Part shown: positions 2,592-7,509 of the stretch, piece by piece
Numbering within the stretch: the first letter of the stretch is position 1
Layout: every line of letters starts with the position of its first letter
Virus record (IMG/VR): IMGVR_UViG_2675903425_000024
DNA from: a virus
Lineage: Duplodnaviria > Heunggongvirae > Uroviricota > Caudoviricetes
Direction: 5' to 3' (one strand)
Length of the DNA: 9,366 bases
Notes under the pieces: model-generated
Seen by the model: only the letters and a program-made list of their open reading frames with translations
The model's database searches: none
Told to the model about the DNA's origin: nothing
Made by a program: the position numbers and the translations under genes

Positions 2592-2632
2592 ATTTATTTC
2601 CTTTACTGATTGCCATATGACGGGGATTTTAC

Positions 2633-2998
2633 ATGGCTGAGCTTCGTACACTCCAGAGCAGAATCAAAACACTGAATACCCGACGGGTGAATATTCTGAA
2701 GGGTGAACAGCGTCGTGTCAGTGGCAGTGCACGTGTTTCCCTCAAGCGTCATATCTGGCTCAGGGATGCCGGGCAGTGCTGTCTCTGTGGTCGTGTGGTT
2801 GACCTCTGTGACAGTGAACTCGATCACCGAATTGCACTTCAGTTCGGTGGTGGTAATGAGGAGACGAATCTCTGGACGCTCTGTACCGAATGCCATCGAC
2901 AAAAGTCTGCTCGTGAAGCGGCGGGTGGTATGCCGGACCCGACGCTGCCGGAGGTGTCCGGAGGTAGTGGCAGAGCGGACGACATCATCGGACTGTAA
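2633..2998 (+). CDS. HNH endonuclease (terminase-associated, HK97 gp74-like role)
   Basis: 121-aa ORF with the HNH/zinc-finger signature CCLCGRVVDLCDSELDHRIALQFGGGNEETNLWTLCTECHRQKS (Cys-x2-Cys...His...Asn...Cys-x2-Cys-His). It sits immediately upstream of the probable cos region and terminase genes, the canonical arrangement in HK97-like cos phages. Confidence 0.85.
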   Translation: MAELRTLQSRIKTLNTRRVNILKGEQRRVSGSARVSLKRHIWLRDAGQCCLCGRVVDLCDSELDHRIALQFGGGNEETNLWTLCTECHRQKSAREAAGGMPDPTLPEVSGGSGRADDIIGL

Positions 2999-3088
2999 CC
3001 CGAGCGGGGGGGTATCATCCGGCGTAAAAAACGATCGCTCCGGACACCGCGCCCCCTCTCACGCAGAGAAAAAATTCCCGTTTCAGGG

Positions 3089-3215
3089 CAGTTAACATGT
3101 TAACTGGCTGCCCGGGCATTTTTGCGGTTTTTATCTTTATTATTCAGTTTGTTGTGCGGAAAAAATGTTAACAGGCTTTTTCAGCAAATGTTAACCAGGC
3201 AGCAGTTAACATTTG
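3089..3215. promoter_or_regulatory. Probable terminase recognition region (cos/cosB-like): cluster of GTTAAC-centred palindromic and repeated elements
   Basis: Perfect 18-bp palindrome CAGTTAACATGTTAACTG (3089-3106) followed by AAATGTTAACAGG (about 3162-3175), AAATGTTAACCAGG (3186-3199) and inverted CAGTTAACATTT (3203-3214): five GTTAAC cores in about 120 bp. An A/T-rich tract (3121-3150) lies between. Located in the 288-bp non-coding gap between the HNH gene and terS. Confidence 0.5.
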
Positions 3216-3286
3216 CGGCATGAGACGCCGGGAAAAATGGGCTGAACCATACCCGGCTGAGTGCGTTCTGGACCCGGGAGGAGGCT

Positions 3287-3850
3287 GTGCTGACAACGCA
3301 AAAACGAAAATTTGCGCTGGCGCTCATGTCCGGGAAAAACAAAACAGCGTCAGCCCTTGCCGCCGGTTATTCGGCGAAGACAGCCAGGGTTAAAGGCTCG
3401 CAGCTGGCAAAAGATCCGGAGGTGCTTGCGTTTATAGCCCGTAAACAGTGCGAGACGGTGGAGGTGGATGAGGTTCCTGTTTATCGGCAGAAAAAATCAG
3501 AGCCGGAGGATAAACCCCGTCGCCGTGAGGCGGCTGCAATACCACAGCCGGACGAAACAAATCCGGAGATGCCACCGCCCGTGGTGATATCTCCTGGTAT
3601 TGAGTATATGGAGGACGGTCTTCCCGATCCGGTGAAAGCGATGGGGCGTCTTCTGGTGGAGAACATTAATACCGACCCCAGGCTGGCGCTGGATGCGGCT
3701 TATAAGCTGGCGCAGTTCACGCACCACAAAAAAGGGGATGCCGGTAAAAAATCGGCAAAAGGTGACGCGGCGAAAAAAGCGGCTAACCGTTTTGCGGTGC
3801 CACCACCACCCCGCCTGGTGGTGAATAATGATAATGAGGGCAACGGATGA
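3287..3850 (+). CDS. terS: Terminase small subunit (Terminase_2 / P27-family type)
   Basis: GTG start at 3287 preceded by the strong SD GGGAGGAGG (3275-3283). The N-terminus (TQKRKFALALMSGKNKTASALAAGYSAKTARVKGSQLAKDPEVLAFI) matches the helix-turn-helix signature of small terminase subunits (...KQ..F......A...AGYS.KTA..GS.L...P.V...I). Stop overlaps the terL start (ATGA). Confidence 0.8.
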   Translation: MLTTQKRKFALALMSGKNKTASALAAGYSAKTARVKGSQLAKDPEVLAFIARKQCETVEVDEVPVYRQKKSEPEDKPRRREAAAIPQPDETNPEMPPPVVISPGIEYMEDGLPDPVKAMGRLLVENINTDPRLALDAAYKLAQFTHHKKGDAGKKSAKGDAAKKAANRFAVPPPPRLVVNNDNEGNG

Positions 3851-5508
3851 TACCTGTGTGGAGCACGGCCTGCCCGGACTGGGCAGAGCGCCTGAAAAAG
3901 GGGCTGTCGATTATTCCGGCTCCGATTTATCCGGAGCAGGCCGCACATGCCCTGGCGATTTTTAAACAACTGCGGATTGTGGATGCACCGGGCAGCCCGA
4001 CGTTCGGGGAGTCCTGCGCACAGTGGGTGTTTGACCTGGTGGCGGCCCTGTTTGGCTCCTACGATGCGCAGACCGGTGTACGCCATATCAAGGAAGTTTT
4101 TATCCTTATCCCCAAGAAAAACAGCAAGTCCACGCTGGCTGCCGGGATCATGATGACGGCGCTGTTACTGAACTGGCGGCAGGCGGCGGGCTACACCATT
4201 CTGGCCCCGACCGTGGAGGTGGCGGCTAACGCCTTCAACCCTGCCAGGGATATGGTACGACGGGACGATGATCTGGATGACCTCTGTCAGGTGCAGACAC
4301 ATATCCGGACCATCACCCACAGGGTGACGGACACCACCCTGAAGGTGGTGGCTGCCGATCCGAATACGGTATCCGGTATCAAGTCCGTGGGGACGCTGAT
4401 TGATGAACTGTGGTTATTTGGCAAGCAGTACAAAGCGGAGGACATGTTACGTGAAGCCATAGGCGGCCTTGCCTCCCGCCCGGAAGGGTTTGTGGTGTAT
4501 ACGACCACCCAGTCGAATGAGCCGCCAGCCGGGGTGTTCAGACAGAAACTGCAGTACGCCCGGGATGTCCGTGACGGCAAAATTCATGATCCGCACTTTC
4601 TGCCGGTGATTTTTGAGCATCCTCCTGAAATGGTGGAAAGCGGGGCTCACCTGCTGATGGAAAACCTCGCCATGGTTAACCCGAATCTCGGTTATTCGGT
4701 GGATGAGGCTTTTCTGTACCGGGAGTACCGTAAAGCCCGGGAGGCTGGTGAGGAAGCATTTCGTGGCTTCATGTCAAAACATGCCAATGTGGAAATTGGT
4801 CTTGCCCTGCGTTCTGACCGCTGGGCGGGTGCGGATTTCTGGGAGCAGCAGGGCAGGCGCGTCAGCCTGGACGATATCCTGCAGCGCGCTGATGTGGTGA
4901 CGGTGGGGATTGACGGCGGGGGCCTGGATGATCTGCTGGGAATGTACGTGATTGGCCGTGACAGGGAAACCCGCGAATGGCTGGGCTGGGGCCATGCCTG
5001 GGCGCATGAAACCGCGGTGGTCCGACGGAAGAGCGAGGCGTCCCGGTTTCAGGATCTTGTTGCCTGTGGAGATATGACCATTGTCCGGCGTGTCGGGGAT
5101 GACACGGCGGAAGTGGCGGAATATGTGCGTCGCATTCATGAGGCTGAGTTACTGGACCATATCGGTATTGACCCGTCAGGGGTGGGGCAGATTCTGGATT
5201 CACTGGCGGAAGCCGGGATCCCCGACGGAATTGTGGTGGGGATAAGCCAGGGCTGGAAACTGGGCGGGGCCATTAAAACCACCGAGCGCAAACTGGCTGA
5301 AGGGGTGCTGGTGCATGGTGACCAGCCCCTGATGGCCTGGTGTGTCGGCAATGCCCGGGTGGAGCCTAAAGGTAACGCCATTCTTATCACCAAACAGGCC
5401 AGTGGACGGGGAAAAATTGACCCGCTGATGGCGCTGTTCAATGCGGTCTCCCTGATGTCCCTTAACCCGGAACCGAAAAAGAAAGAATATGCGGTTTTTT
5501 TCATATAA
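3847..5508 (+). CDS. terL: Terminase large subunit (ATPase/nuclease)
   Basis: 553-aa ORF overlapping terS by 4 nt. Walker-A-like P-loop (ILIPKKNSKST), overall length and context typical of HK97-like large terminases. Followed by head genes. Confidence 0.92.
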   Translation: MIPVWSTACPDWAERLKKGLSIIPAPIYPEQAAHALAIFKQLRIVDAPGSPTFGESCAQWVFDLVAALFGSYDAQTGVRHIKEVFILIPKKNSKSTLAAGIMMTALLLNWRQAAGYTILAPTVEVAANAFNPARDMVRRDDDLDDLCQVQTHIRTITHRVTDTTLKVVAADPNTVSGIKSVGTLIDELWLFGKQYKAEDMLREAIGGLASRPEGFVVYTTTQSNEPPAGVFRQKLQYARDVRDGKIHDPHFLPVIFEHPPEMVESGAHLLMENLAMVNPNLGYSVDEAFLYREYRKAREAGEEAFRGFMSKHANVEIGLALRSDRWAGADFWEQQGRRVSLDDILQRADVVTVGIDGGGLDDLLGMYVIGRDRETREWLGWGHAWAHETAVVRRKSEASRFQDLVACGDMTIVRRVGDDTAEVAEYVRRIHEAELLDHIGIDPSGVGQILDSLAEAGIPDGIVVGISQGWKLGGAIKTTERKLAEGVLVHGDQPLMAWCVGNARVEPKGNAILITKQASGRGKIDPLMALFNAVSLMSLNPEPKKKEYAVFFI

Positions 5509-5571: not shown

Positions 5572-7509
5572 GTGACTCTTAAACGGGCCTGTTCCCTGCT
5601 GACGGTGAAATCCTTCAGTGAGGATGAACGGGTGATCACCGGGATTGCGTCAACGCCTTCTCCGGATCGGGATGGTGACATCCTGGAGCCGGAGGGCGCG
5701 GAGTTTGGCAGTGCGATCCCGTTTCTCTGGCAGCATGACCATTCCCGCCCGGTGGGGCAGTGTACGGTGCGCCGGGTCAGCGAAGGGCTGGAAATCACGG
5801 CAACACTGGTGAAGCCCGTACCGGATATGCCGTCGCAACTGGCTGCCCGGCTGGATGAGGTCTGGGCGGCCATTAAGACCGGGCTGGTCAGGGGGCTGTC
5901 CGTGGGCTTCCGTCCCCATGAATACACCTTTCTGGACGGAGGCGGACTGCATTTTCTGCGCTGGGAACTGATGGAGGTGTCTGCCGTCACCGTGCCCGCG
6001 AATGCGGAATGCACCATCCGGACCATTAAATCTTACGACCGCCCGTTTTCTGCCGCGTCCGGCAACCGGAAACCGGTGGTGAAAATCGCATCTTCTGCCG
6101 GCGCTGCGGCACAGTCAACAACCGTTTTTCATAAGGAAAAGACCATAATGAATATTGGCGAACAGATTAAAAGTTTTGAAAACAAGCGTGCAGCGCTGGC
6201 AGCCTCCCTTGAGGAGGTCATGACCAAAGCCGCAGAGGAAGGGCGCACGCTGGATGTGGAGGAGGAAGAGCATTACGACAACACCGCAGCGGAAATCCGT
6301 CAGGTGGATGCGCACCTGAAGCGCCTGCGTGAACTGGAAGCCGGTAAGGCCGCCACGGCGCAGCCGGTGAAACAGGCCGGTAACGGGAATGTGGCCGCGG
6401 TGGCTTCTGCGCCGGTGATCCGTGTGGAGCAGAAACTGGATAAGGGGATTGGCTTCGCCCGCTTTGCCAAATCGCTGGCTGCGGCTAAAGGCGTCCGATC
6501 TGAAGCCCTGGAAGTGGCCCGTCGTCAGTATCCGGATGACAGTCGTCTGCATCATGTCCTGAAATCGGCAGTGGGCGCGGGGACCACCACGGATCCGCAG
6601 TGGGCAGGCAGCCTGTCTGAATATCAGGAATACGCACAGGACTTTATTGATTACCTGCGTCCGCAGACCATTATCGGGCGATTTGGTCAGGGCGGGATCC
6701 CTGCACTTCGTCAGGTGCCATTCAATATCCGTGTGCACGCCCAGGTGTCCGGCGGTGCTGCCGGCTGGGTGGGTGAGGGTAAGGCAAAACCCCTGACGAA
6801 GTTTGATTTTGAATCCATCACCTTCAGTCATGCGAAGGTGTCGGCCATTGCGGTACTGACGGAAGAATTGATCCGTTTTTCCAGTCCGGCTGCTGATGCA
6901 CTGGTCCGTAATGCGCTGGCGGAAGCGGTGGTGGCGCGTCTGGATACAGACTTTGTGGACCCGAAAAAAGCCGCAGTGGCAGATGTCTCCCCGGCGTCCA
7001 TCACCCATGATGTGAAGGGCACGGCATCAACCGGTAACCCGGATGCGGATGCCGAGGCTGCGTTTGGACAGTTTGTGGCAGCAAACCTGCAGCCCACCGG
7101 TGCGGTCTGGCTGATGTCCAGCACCAATGCCCTGGCACTGTCCATGCGTAAAAATGCGCTGGGTCAGAAGGAATACCCGGACATGACCCTGCTGGGTGGC
7201 TCCTTCCAGGGGCTGCCGGTGATTGTCTCCCAGTACGTGGGTGACCAGCTGGTGCTGGTGAATGCCCCGGATATTTATCTGGCGGATGACGGCGGCGTGG
7301 CAGTGGATATGTCCCGCGAGGCATCACTGGAAATGCAGTCTGAGCCGGGCGGCGACAGTACCACGCCGTCCCCGGTGGAGCTGGTTTCCATGTTCCAGAC
7401 AGGCAGCGTGGCCATCCGTGCGGAGCGCTGGATCAACTGGCGTCGTCGCCGTACTGCGGCGGTGGCGGTGATCACCGGAGTGAACTACGGCAGTGCGTCC
7501 GGCGGCTGA
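5572..7509 (+). CDS. Prohead protease (HK97/S78 family) fused in-frame to major capsid protein (HK97 fold)
   Basis: Single 645-aa ORF with SD AGGAGG 5 nt upstream of the GTG start. The N-terminal roughly 190 aa (GIASTPSPDRDGDILEPEGAEF...WQHDHSRPVG...SAVTVPANAEC) resembles HK97 gp4-type prohead proteases. From about residue 193 (MNIGEQIKSFENKRAALAASLEEV..., coiled-coil delta-domain-like, then a roughly 400-aa body) it resembles HK97-type major capsid proteins. An internal in-frame ATG at 6148 with AAGGA 10 nt upstream could also initiate the capsid protein independently. Confidence 0.9.
   Translation: MTLKRACSLLTVKSFSEDERVITGIASTPSPDRDGDILEPEGAEFGSAIPFLWQHDHSRPVGQCTVRRVSEGLEITATLVKPVPDMPSQLAARLDEVWAAIKTGLVRGLSVGFRPHEYTFLDGGGLHFLRWELMEVSAVTVPANAECTIRTIKSYDRPFSAASGNRKPVVKIASSAGAAAQSTTVFHKEKTIMNIGEQIKSFENKRAALAASLEEVMTKAAEEGRTLDVEEEEHYDNTAAEIRQVDAHLKRLRELEAGKAATAQPVKQAGNGNVAAVASAPVIRVEQKLDKGIGFARFAKSLAAAKGVRSEALEVARRQYPDDSRLHHVLKSAVGAGTTTDPQWAGSLSEYQEYAQDFIDYLRPQTIIGRFGQGGIPALRQVPFNIRVHAQVSGGAAGWVGEGKAKPLTKFDFESITFSHAKVSAIAVLTEELIRFSSPAADALVRNALAEAVVARLDTDFVDPKKAAVADVSPASITHDVKGTASTGNPDADAEAAFGQFVAANLQPTGAVWLMSSTNALALSMRKNALGQKEYPDMTLLGGSFQGLPVIVSQYVGDQLVLVNAPDIYLADDGGVAVDMSREASLEMQSEPGGDSTTPSPVELVSMFQTGSVAIRAERWINWRRRRTAAVAVITGVNYGSASGG

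Follow-up and report, generated by a model that had tools for sequence, protein, structure and literature searches.

The repeat array at positions 3089-3216 of the stretch of DNA described here is probably (about 80%) the recognition array for the small terminase protein (TerS) in the cohesive-end (cos) packaging site of a bacteriophage, the functional counterpart of cosB. Confidence in the details of the array geometry is much lower than in the recognition-array reading itself. The stretch, referred to below as the window, is the 9,366-nucleotide IMG/VR record IMGVR_UViG_2675903425_000024. It represents the late region of a long-tailed, Shiga toxin (Stx)-type lambdoid Escherichia coli prophage, with an HNH endonuclease gene, the gap that holds the array, the small terminase gene (terS), and the large terminase gene (terL) in that order. 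Over positions 2600-3900, identity was 97.8% to phage 2851 and 97.5% to BP-4795; of the 94 phage records matched by this region, nearly all were from Stx1- or Stx2-converting phages. The region was found in 1,277 of the 5,426 complete E. coli genomes, at approximately 3,000 places and up to seven times per genome. In other words, roughly one in four complete E. coli genomes carries the gap, frequently in several copies, and it is present in the Stx1 and Stx2 phages of O157:H7.

The elements of the array are as follows, with distances (+) counted from the proposed cut, +1 being window position 3058:

3089-3106 (+32 to +49): site 1, CAGTTAACATGTTAACTG, a perfect 18-bp palindrome with half-sites ATGTTAAC at 3091-3098 (minus strand) and 3097-3104 (plus strand).
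3113-3160: T-rich spacer between sites 1 and 2, with roughly phased T-tracts.
3142-3154, plus strand: ATTCAGTTTGTTG, a weak candidate for an integration host factor (IHF)-like core (12/13 match to WATCARNNNNTTR) or for a degenerate sixth half-site.
3163-3172 (+106 to +115), plus strand: site 2, AAATGTTAAC, a direct copy.
3184-3216 (+127 to +159): sites 3 and 4, the inverted pair GCAAATGTTAAC - 9 bp - GTTAACATTTGC.

A preliminary description of the window had reported, between the HNH gene (2633-2998) and terS (3287-3850), a perfect 18-bp palindrome, three further elements in direct and inverted orientation, and an A/T-rich tract between the elements. All of these were recovered: the palindrome is site 1, the further elements are the AAATGTTAAC copies at 3163-3172 (+), 3186-3195 (+), and 3205-3214 (-), and the tract consists of T runs between sites 1 and 2 (3119-3123, 3128-3132, 3136-3138, and 3148-3150), spaced approximately 9-12 bp apart. 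The 8-mer ATGTTAAC occurs exactly five times in the window, at 3091 (-), 3097 (+), 3165 (+), 3188 (+), and 3205 (-), which gives half-sites in the order -, +, +, +, - at +34 to +155, between the cut site (cosN) and terS, with a consensus of approximately aaATGTTAACnGGC. The inverted repeat of sites 3 and 4 has 12-nt arms (3184-3195 and 3205-3216) that are 100% complementary, and the 9 nt between them, CAGGCAGCA, are largely kept across lineages. The base at 3174, beside site 2, is A or T among relatives, and where it is T, site 2 matches site 1 over AACTGGCT. This density of repeats is not expected by chance. There were eight copies of GTTAAC in the window compared with 1.27 expected, a number reached in none of 200 shuffles, and none of 50,000 shuffles under a first-order Markov model gave five or more copies of any non-trivial 8-mer within the 229-bp gap (the most seen was four, in nine shuffles).

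The position of the cut was taken from phage Lys8385Vzw, which has a TerS 96% identical to that of the window and a gap approximately 99% identical over 263 bp. Analysis of Lys8385Vzw virion DNA with PhageTerm identified a cos phage with 3' cohesive ends and the sequence CGCCCCCCCT at the genome end (PMC7946995). The Lys8385Vzw record opens not at a gene boundary but at CTCACGCAGAG... and closes with ...GGACACCGCCCCCCCT. The virion end aligns to window 3048-3057, 32 bp to the left of the palindrome, which places the array at +32 to +159 and the terS start at +230. The preliminary description had pointed out that HK97-like and lambda-like phages place cos directly upstream of terS, and this alignment puts it there, in the gap between HNH and terS. 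Two features were assigned on this basis:

3048-3057: cosN, with the cohesive-end sequence CGCGCCCCCT, aligned with the 10-nt Lys8385Vzw end; a probable 3' overhang, with the top strand cut after 3057.
3006-3075: conserved cos core, comprising a G-run (3006-3012), CGATCG, and GGACACCGC, up to CTCACGCAGAGAAAA; common to phages and satellite islands.

The columns of the cos core were invariant in an alignment of eight divergent phage and island sequences, and the core was found in approximately 20 Enterobacterales relatives and in at least 120 IMG/VR stretches.

Comparison with close relatives was based on 69 distinct sequences from IMG/VR and GenBank. Conservation over the whole gap did not separate the repeats from the spacers in this set, but a per-column test and more divergent lineages did. 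Variation was seen in just 1 of the 38 columns in the five 8-mers but in 20 of the 91 other array columns (Fisher p=0.007). In the P0014, P0021, and P0036 lineages, with TerS proteins 66-80% identical to that of the window, all five copies were intact, and in P0014 the DNA from the last repeat to terS was down to 79% identity. The P0032 lineage (TerS 69% identical) had 37 of 38 positions of the 8-mers identical versus 85 of 146 in the surrounding DNA (p=6e-7). In this lineage (L181, 397-431), an insertion of 10 bp separating sites 3 and 4 carries an additional, sixth copy of GTTAAC; since 10 bp is one helical turn, the phase of the neighboring sites is kept. The comparison with related phages that the preliminary description had suggested therefore came out in its favor: the repeats are conserved, and their conservation exceeds that of the intervening DNA.

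The P0023 lineage (TerS 76% identical) has the same layout, with spacings of 66/24/17 bp versus 68/23/17 bp in the window, but each of its five copies is ATGTTTAY, and GTTAAC is entirely absent. Its array consists of the palindrome TATAAACATGTTTATA, the direct copy GAAATGTTTATACCC, and the inverted pair AAAATGTTTAC-N9-GTAAACATTT. That five copies changed at the same position while their flanks drifted indicates a shared reader that differs between lineages. The T-rich spacer is present at equal length in all long-array lineages, though these spacers are just 50-61% identical, and is proposed to be a bendable segment. Within it, ATTCA-N4-TGTT at the IHF-like stretch was kept in four otherwise divergent arrays; there was no match to the strict IHF consensus WATCAANNNNTTR with one mismatch or fewer in the gap.

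The reader of the repeats is most likely TerS, to judge from its predicted fold and from the way its sequence varies with that of the repeats. Residues 12-57 of TerS matched the DNA-binding domain of the SF6 small terminase (4zc3) in a profile search (E=3.3e-4). In an AlphaFold2 model the N-terminal domain had a predicted local distance difference test score (pLDDT) above 90, with helices at residues 4-14, 19-25, 33-41, and 44-54, and a Foldseek comparison of this domain with 4zc3 gave a target TM-score of 0.84 and a root-mean-square deviation of 1.6 Å over 56 columns. The domain was located as follows:

3287-3454, plus strand: TerS DNA-binding domain, residues 1-56, a predicted SF6-type helix-turn-helix and the proposed reader of the array.

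The recognition helix is predicted to be residues 33-41, following a turn at Y28-T32. Beyond residue 56 the model of the TerS monomer was poor (pLDDT 42-87; predicted TM-score, 0.32), so the model is informative for the N-terminal domain alone. In a check for the ring-forming central oligomerization domain of SPP1/SF6 small terminases, just a weak match to 3zqq was obtained; the C-terminal domain is proposed to contact the large terminase protein (TerL).

The association of repeat motif with helix was examined in 110 unique pairs of an array and a TerS N terminus, collected in part by scanning IMG/VR for the cut-site core. The TerS sequences and the arrays found with them were:

S[AEG]KTAR[VI]KGS[QR]L: long array, five copies of ATGTTAAC (64 of 65 pairs).
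SEKSARCKGSQL: long array, five copies of ATGTTTAY.
SEKSARSKGSQL: short array, GTAAAC-ATG-TTAAC.
SEKTARSQGSRL: short array, GTTAAC-GTG-TTAAC.
SEKSAGSKGSQL: intermediate array, 150 bp from core to terS, two direct ATAAACTT repeats.
S[EG]KTARVKGWQL: islands, AAGTTACA repeats.

Predictions of the motif made from the TerS sequence alone held in both cases: P0030, with KSARCKG, had ATGTTTAY, and P0021, with KTARVKG, had GTTAAC. The residues that varied (30, 32, 35, 36, 38, and 39) belong to the turn and recognition helix of the confidently modeled SF6-like domain, and the natural variants pair Thr32/Val35 with GTTAAC and Ser32/Cys35 with GTTTAY.

Further evidence came from genomic islands. The TerS homologs P0063 and P0053 are encoded in E. 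coli islands that resemble phage-inducible chromosomal islands (PICIs) and carry the cut-site core of the window phage. The islands encode AlpA, a primase or AAA_25 replicase, a TerS of 157-162 amino acids, and a 307-amino-acid homolog of HK97-fold capsid proteins; no terL or HNH gene was found in the island stretches examined. Their positions, in island coordinates, are:

L165-L168 islands: terS at 2501-2989; repeats at about 2458-2481.
L175-L177 islands: repeats at about 1820-1990 in L175.

Downstream of the core the islands have a repeat of their own, AAAAGTTACAC. One type of island contained two direct copies, and the other contained six (five direct and one inverted) together with a T-rich spacer. 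Compared with the TerS of the window, the island TerS proteins were 62-77% identical in the C-terminal domain and just 46-52% identical in the DNA-binding domain, while TerS proteins of distantly related phages showed the reverse pattern, with 70-77% identity in the DNA-binding domain and 35-46% in the C-terminal domain. This pattern indicates that the cutting site and the part of TerS that faces TerL are shared, and that the repeats and the DNA-binding domain change together. A common core with a paired change of repeat and domain is what would be predicted if the region were divided into a cosN-like and a cosB-like part. The islands look like satellites of this Stx-type phage group, and no description of these TerS-encoding islands was found in the literature searched.

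The origin of site 1 was apparent from more distant relatives, namely Salmonella phage FSL SP-016 and approximately 20 prophages of other members of the Enterobacterales (among them Kluyvera, Atlantibacter, Erwinia, Serratia, Enterobacter, Pantoea, and Citrobacter). (A scan of genome contigs with the single TerS protein as query gave no confirmed relative and was rerun with a TerS alignment.) The TerS proteins of these elements are 33-48% identical to that of the window, and the gap between HNH and terS is just 105 bp or so. It contains the same core, in the arrangement GGGGGGGT...CGATCG...GGACACCGCGCCCCCTCTCACGCACAGAAAAAATTCCCCTCTGGAGGGTGTAAAC-ATG-TTAAC. There is a single palindromic site, and the terS ATG lies in the center of this near-palindrome, GT(A/T)AAC-ATG-TTAAC, approximately 39 bp from the cut. 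The equal position of the near-palindrome indicates that the palindrome in the window is homologous to the ribosome-binding site and start region of the ancestral terS. Relative to these elements the Stx-phage lineage has approximately 190 extra bp (about 3105-3286), in which the motif is present three more times and with which terS has gained a different start, GTGCTGACA, at 3287.

These observations are consistent with the following mechanism, in which TerS binding, bending of the spacer, and the sequence of events are inferred. A TerS oligomer would bind the five half-sites through its N-terminal domains, which are of the SF6 helix-turn-helix type. The T-rich spacer of about 60 bp would bend, either intrinsically or with the help of IHF, so that one TerS assembly could hold site 1 and sites 2-4. 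TerS bound to the array would anchor TerL, with the assistance of the HNH protein, at the conserved core, which lies 32 bp leftward, and staggered nicks by TerL would there generate 10-nt 3' cohesive ends (3048-3057). The complex would then remain on the end that carries the array, and packaging would proceed rightward into terS and the head genes.

Several points weigh against the interpretation of the array as a TerS recognition site. The correspondence of Thr or Ser in the helix with A or T in the motif is not absolute in short-type relatives; L104, for example, has KTAR and one GTTTAC half-site. Because terS is less than 250 bp from the array and is inherited with it, the association of motif and helix partly reflects shared descent, with few independent switches. 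No binding or packaging experiment on this phage or its close relatives was found in the literature searched, which did not extend to subscription journals. A conserved A-tract at approximately +12 to +17 could also contribute to recognition, and the IHF match in the spacer is weak. The TerS of HK97, which is the most thoroughly studied cos phage with an HNH protein, reads a single 15-bp site (PMC11331095), so an array of multiple sites is not the only solution. Finally, with the inverted repeats an RNA or DNA hairpin would be preserved as well.

The last point leads to the possibility that the main role of the inverted repeats is to form hairpins, in the RNA of the late transcript or in single-stranded DNA, and thereby to control the translation of terS or the processing or stability of the mRNA. 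RNA from 3058-3300 did fold somewhat better than shuffled sequences (z=-2.25; 1 of 200 was as good), but such a value is unremarkable in a region rich in inverted repeats. The two arms of the 3'-most pair had undergone complementary changes in the P0023 lineage (AAATGTTTAC...GTAAACATTT), which would keep a stem as well; however, the direct copy at site 2 changed in concert as well, and the L165 island arrays and the L286 array consist of direct repeats only, from which no hairpin can form. Although the palindrome overlaps the terS start codon in the distant relatives, the current ribosome-binding site of terS is approximately 70 nt past the last repeat. A scan for intrinsic terminators found none, and a search of Rfam gave just a chance-level match to a microRNA (E=0.87). 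Hairpins would also not account for a motif that follows the residues of a DNA-binding helix, and this explanation is considered unlikely.

About as unlikely is that the repeats are operators for a sequence-specific protein other than TerS, for example a regulator of the phage, the HNH product, or a nucleoid protein of the host. In favor of this reading, the evidence for TerS as the binder is indirect, and TTAACA resembles a -35 hexamer, with one weak promoter-like match on the minus strand at 3194-3165. However, late genes of lambdoid phages are read through from an upstream late promoter, so no promoter is needed in the gap. A host factor is unlikely because the motif differs among elements within one host species. 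With regard to the HNH protein, the array stays fixed despite the hypervariable 3' end of the HNH gene, and the islands, in which neither HNH nor terL was present in the stretches examined, have their own TerS together with their own motif. TerS was the only protein with DNA-binding residues that track the motif.

That the repeats are functionless leftovers of a duplicated ancestral terS start region is strongly disfavored: site 1 is clearly homologous to the terS ribosome-binding site and start of distant relatives, and the roughly 190 bp at 3105-3286 are an insertion relative to them, but leftovers would decay randomly, whereas no bases of the gap are better conserved than the 8-mers, which moreover changed together in a sister lineage, have spacings kept within 2 bp or off by a whole helical turn, and have been retained in the thousands of E. 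coli copies counted above.

With TerS as the probable reader, the array is best regarded as an analog, not a homolog, of lambda cosB. In lambda, R3 is at bp 50-65, the start of Nu1 is at bp 191, and the layout is R3-I1-R2-R1 (PMC9026076). Both phages have repeats of mixed orientation between the nick site and terS, and the size is similar, with site 1 of the window at +32 to +49 and terS at +230; in lambda a bend site follows the first repeat. The presumed role, anchoring TerL for accurate nicking, is also common to both. The differences are that the N-terminal DNA-binding domain of lambda TerS is of another kind, SF6-like in the window phage; that lambda ends have 12-nt 5' overhangs made without an HNH protein, compared with 10-nt 3' overhangs (by homology) and an adjacent HNH gene here; and that the first site of the window is a true palindrome, unlike in lambda. 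The resemblance to cosB drawn in the preliminary description, which extended to the R sites and the IHF site, thus stands for position, size, and layout (PMC9026076), but not for homology, and an IHF site is weakly supported and not established here. In phage N15 there is a single R3, no IHF site, and a terS start at bp 89 (PMC9026076), so both N15/lambda and the window family have a short and a long form; the protein family is different, and in the short form of the window family the site overlaps the terS start codon.

The packaging module as a whole resembles that of HK97, with HNH just upstream, cos in the gap between HNH and terS, a TerL with PF03354 and PF20441, 10-nt 3' ends (here by homology), and a TerS site just downstream of the cut. 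In HK97, the model for modules with an HNH gene, the overhangs are likewise 3' and 10 nt long, and cleavage of cos by TerL is stimulated by the HNH protein gp74 (PMC9410871); the HK97 TerS, gp1, recognizes its one site at +15 to +29, with the DNA threaded through the ring (PMC11331095). The window TerS differs in having an SF6-type helix-turn-helix and, as proposed here, five half-sites spread over 128 bp. The G1P proteins of SPP1 and SF6 share the fold of the DNA-binding domain and Pfam Terminase_2 with the window TerS. The TerS of SPP1 contacts DNA at several places on either side of the cut and bends it, and the specific sites of this family are poorly defined in vitro (PMC9611059). In contrast to these phages, which package by the headful (pac) mechanism in Bacillus, the window phage is of the cos type, to judge from its close relative, and has a sharply defined motif. 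Lambda-dependent E. coli PICIs have a helper-type cut-site core and a different recognition region, and their Rpp protein retargets the helper TerS (PMC6092414, PMC9026076). The islands found here likewise keep a helper-type core and differ in the recognition region. Unlike the PICIs with Rpp they encode their own TerS, which is closer to the strategy of Staphylococcus aureus pathogenicity islands, but in a cos system; their helper is putative.

We tentatively suggest, as a possibility rather than an expectation, that the array and the TerS DNA-binding domain form a matched, evolvable pair that sets packaging specificity on top of a shared cutting site and TerL, and that the islands exploit the phages in this way. 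If this is so, Stx-type prophages residing in the same cell would fall into specificity groups (GTTAAC, GTTTAY, and others), and the islands would keep the phage core and a TerS C-terminal domain compatible with the helper while having their own DNA-binding domain, AAAAGTTACAC repeats, and capsid homolog. The natural variants would then give direct access to the way in which DNA is read by an SF6-type small terminase, a question that a recent review treats as unresolved (PMC9611059). A sharp motif combined with single-residue variants of the recognition helix would make this a tractable system for DNA recognition by a ring-shaped TerS with peripheral helix-turn-helix domains.

To our knowledge every cos phage needs a TerS recognition site, so the array is an element of the expected kind. 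Even so, it appears to be undescribed in a very common and medically relevant group of phages: no paper on the array or on the TerS sites of these phages was found in a search of literature open without subscription. Knowing which bases direct packaging would help to explain which prophages, defective prophages, and islands can be mobilized together with toxin genes, and would define the minimal cos cassette for transduction tools.

The genes annotated in the window were:

312-1007: ant.
1321-1824: Rz.
1918-2259: open reading frame with a TonB_C domain, between the lysis genes and HNH.
2633-2998, plus strand: HNH endonuclease gene (Pfam PF01844, E=7.5e-7; annotated as such in phages 2851 and BP-4795).
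3287-3850, plus strand: terS (Pfam Terminase_2 PF03592, E=4.5e-8, 34.3 bits versus a cut-off of 26.1).
3847-5508, plus strand: terL (Pfam TerL_ATPase PF03354 and TerL_nuclease PF20441, both above gathering scores).
5572-7509: protease-capsid fusion, with prohead protease and major capsid protein in one 645-amino-acid open reading frame.

The terL product is the large terminase, which cuts at cos and drives packaging. The HNH protein is likely an accessory nuclease for cos cleavage, by analogy with gp74 of HK97. Fusion of the protease and capsid proteins is known from Gifsy-2-like heads.

A motif copy upstream of ant, CTGGTTAAC (248-256; GTTAAC at 251-256), was considered as an additional site and rejected. 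It lacks the ATG/AAAT flank common to all five copies in the array, and the three GTTAAC sequences outside the array are not clearly above the number expected for the window, so it is best taken as coincidence, as the preliminary description had allowed. The copy has only GTTAACCAG in common with site 3. Near it is a direct repeat, CTGGTTA...CTGGTTA (248-254 and 267-273).

A small open reading frame at 3097-3171, which begins at the ancestral terS ATG, encodes 24 hydrophobic residues (MLTGCPGIFAVFIFIIQFVVRKKC), and ends within site 2, is probably a by-product of the T-rich spacer and not a gene. Its length was also 24 amino acids in L181 and just 14 in the P0023 lineage, and the ribosome-binding site upstream of it has decayed from GGAGGG to CAGGGC.

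Nucleotide diversity among the 69 close relatives was approximately 0.10-0.11 to the left of the cut (2900-3057) and 0.01-0.04 to the right (3058-3420). The variable side comprises the 3' end of HNH and the left half of cos, and the sharp change indicates that a mosaic joint coincides with cos. Contig ends near the cut (the start of L008 at 3057 and the end of L190 at the core) were not counted as evidence for the cut, since the boundary between variable and conserved sequence coincides with them and could by itself break assemblies of genomes with multiple prophages.

The center of the cos core, CGATCG, is flanked by a run of seven G (3006-3012) and a run of five C (3052-3056). The G-run was present in every phage and island examined, and its length differed by a few bases among close relatives. 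As it is on the end that would be packaged last, it could be a cosQ-like termination element or a contact for TerL or the HNH protein. In the PPompW prophages, homology to the window starts at approximately 3009, with the IS110-family element ISEc20 annotated directly to the left, and this insertion in the invariant G-run may disable packaging of these prophages.

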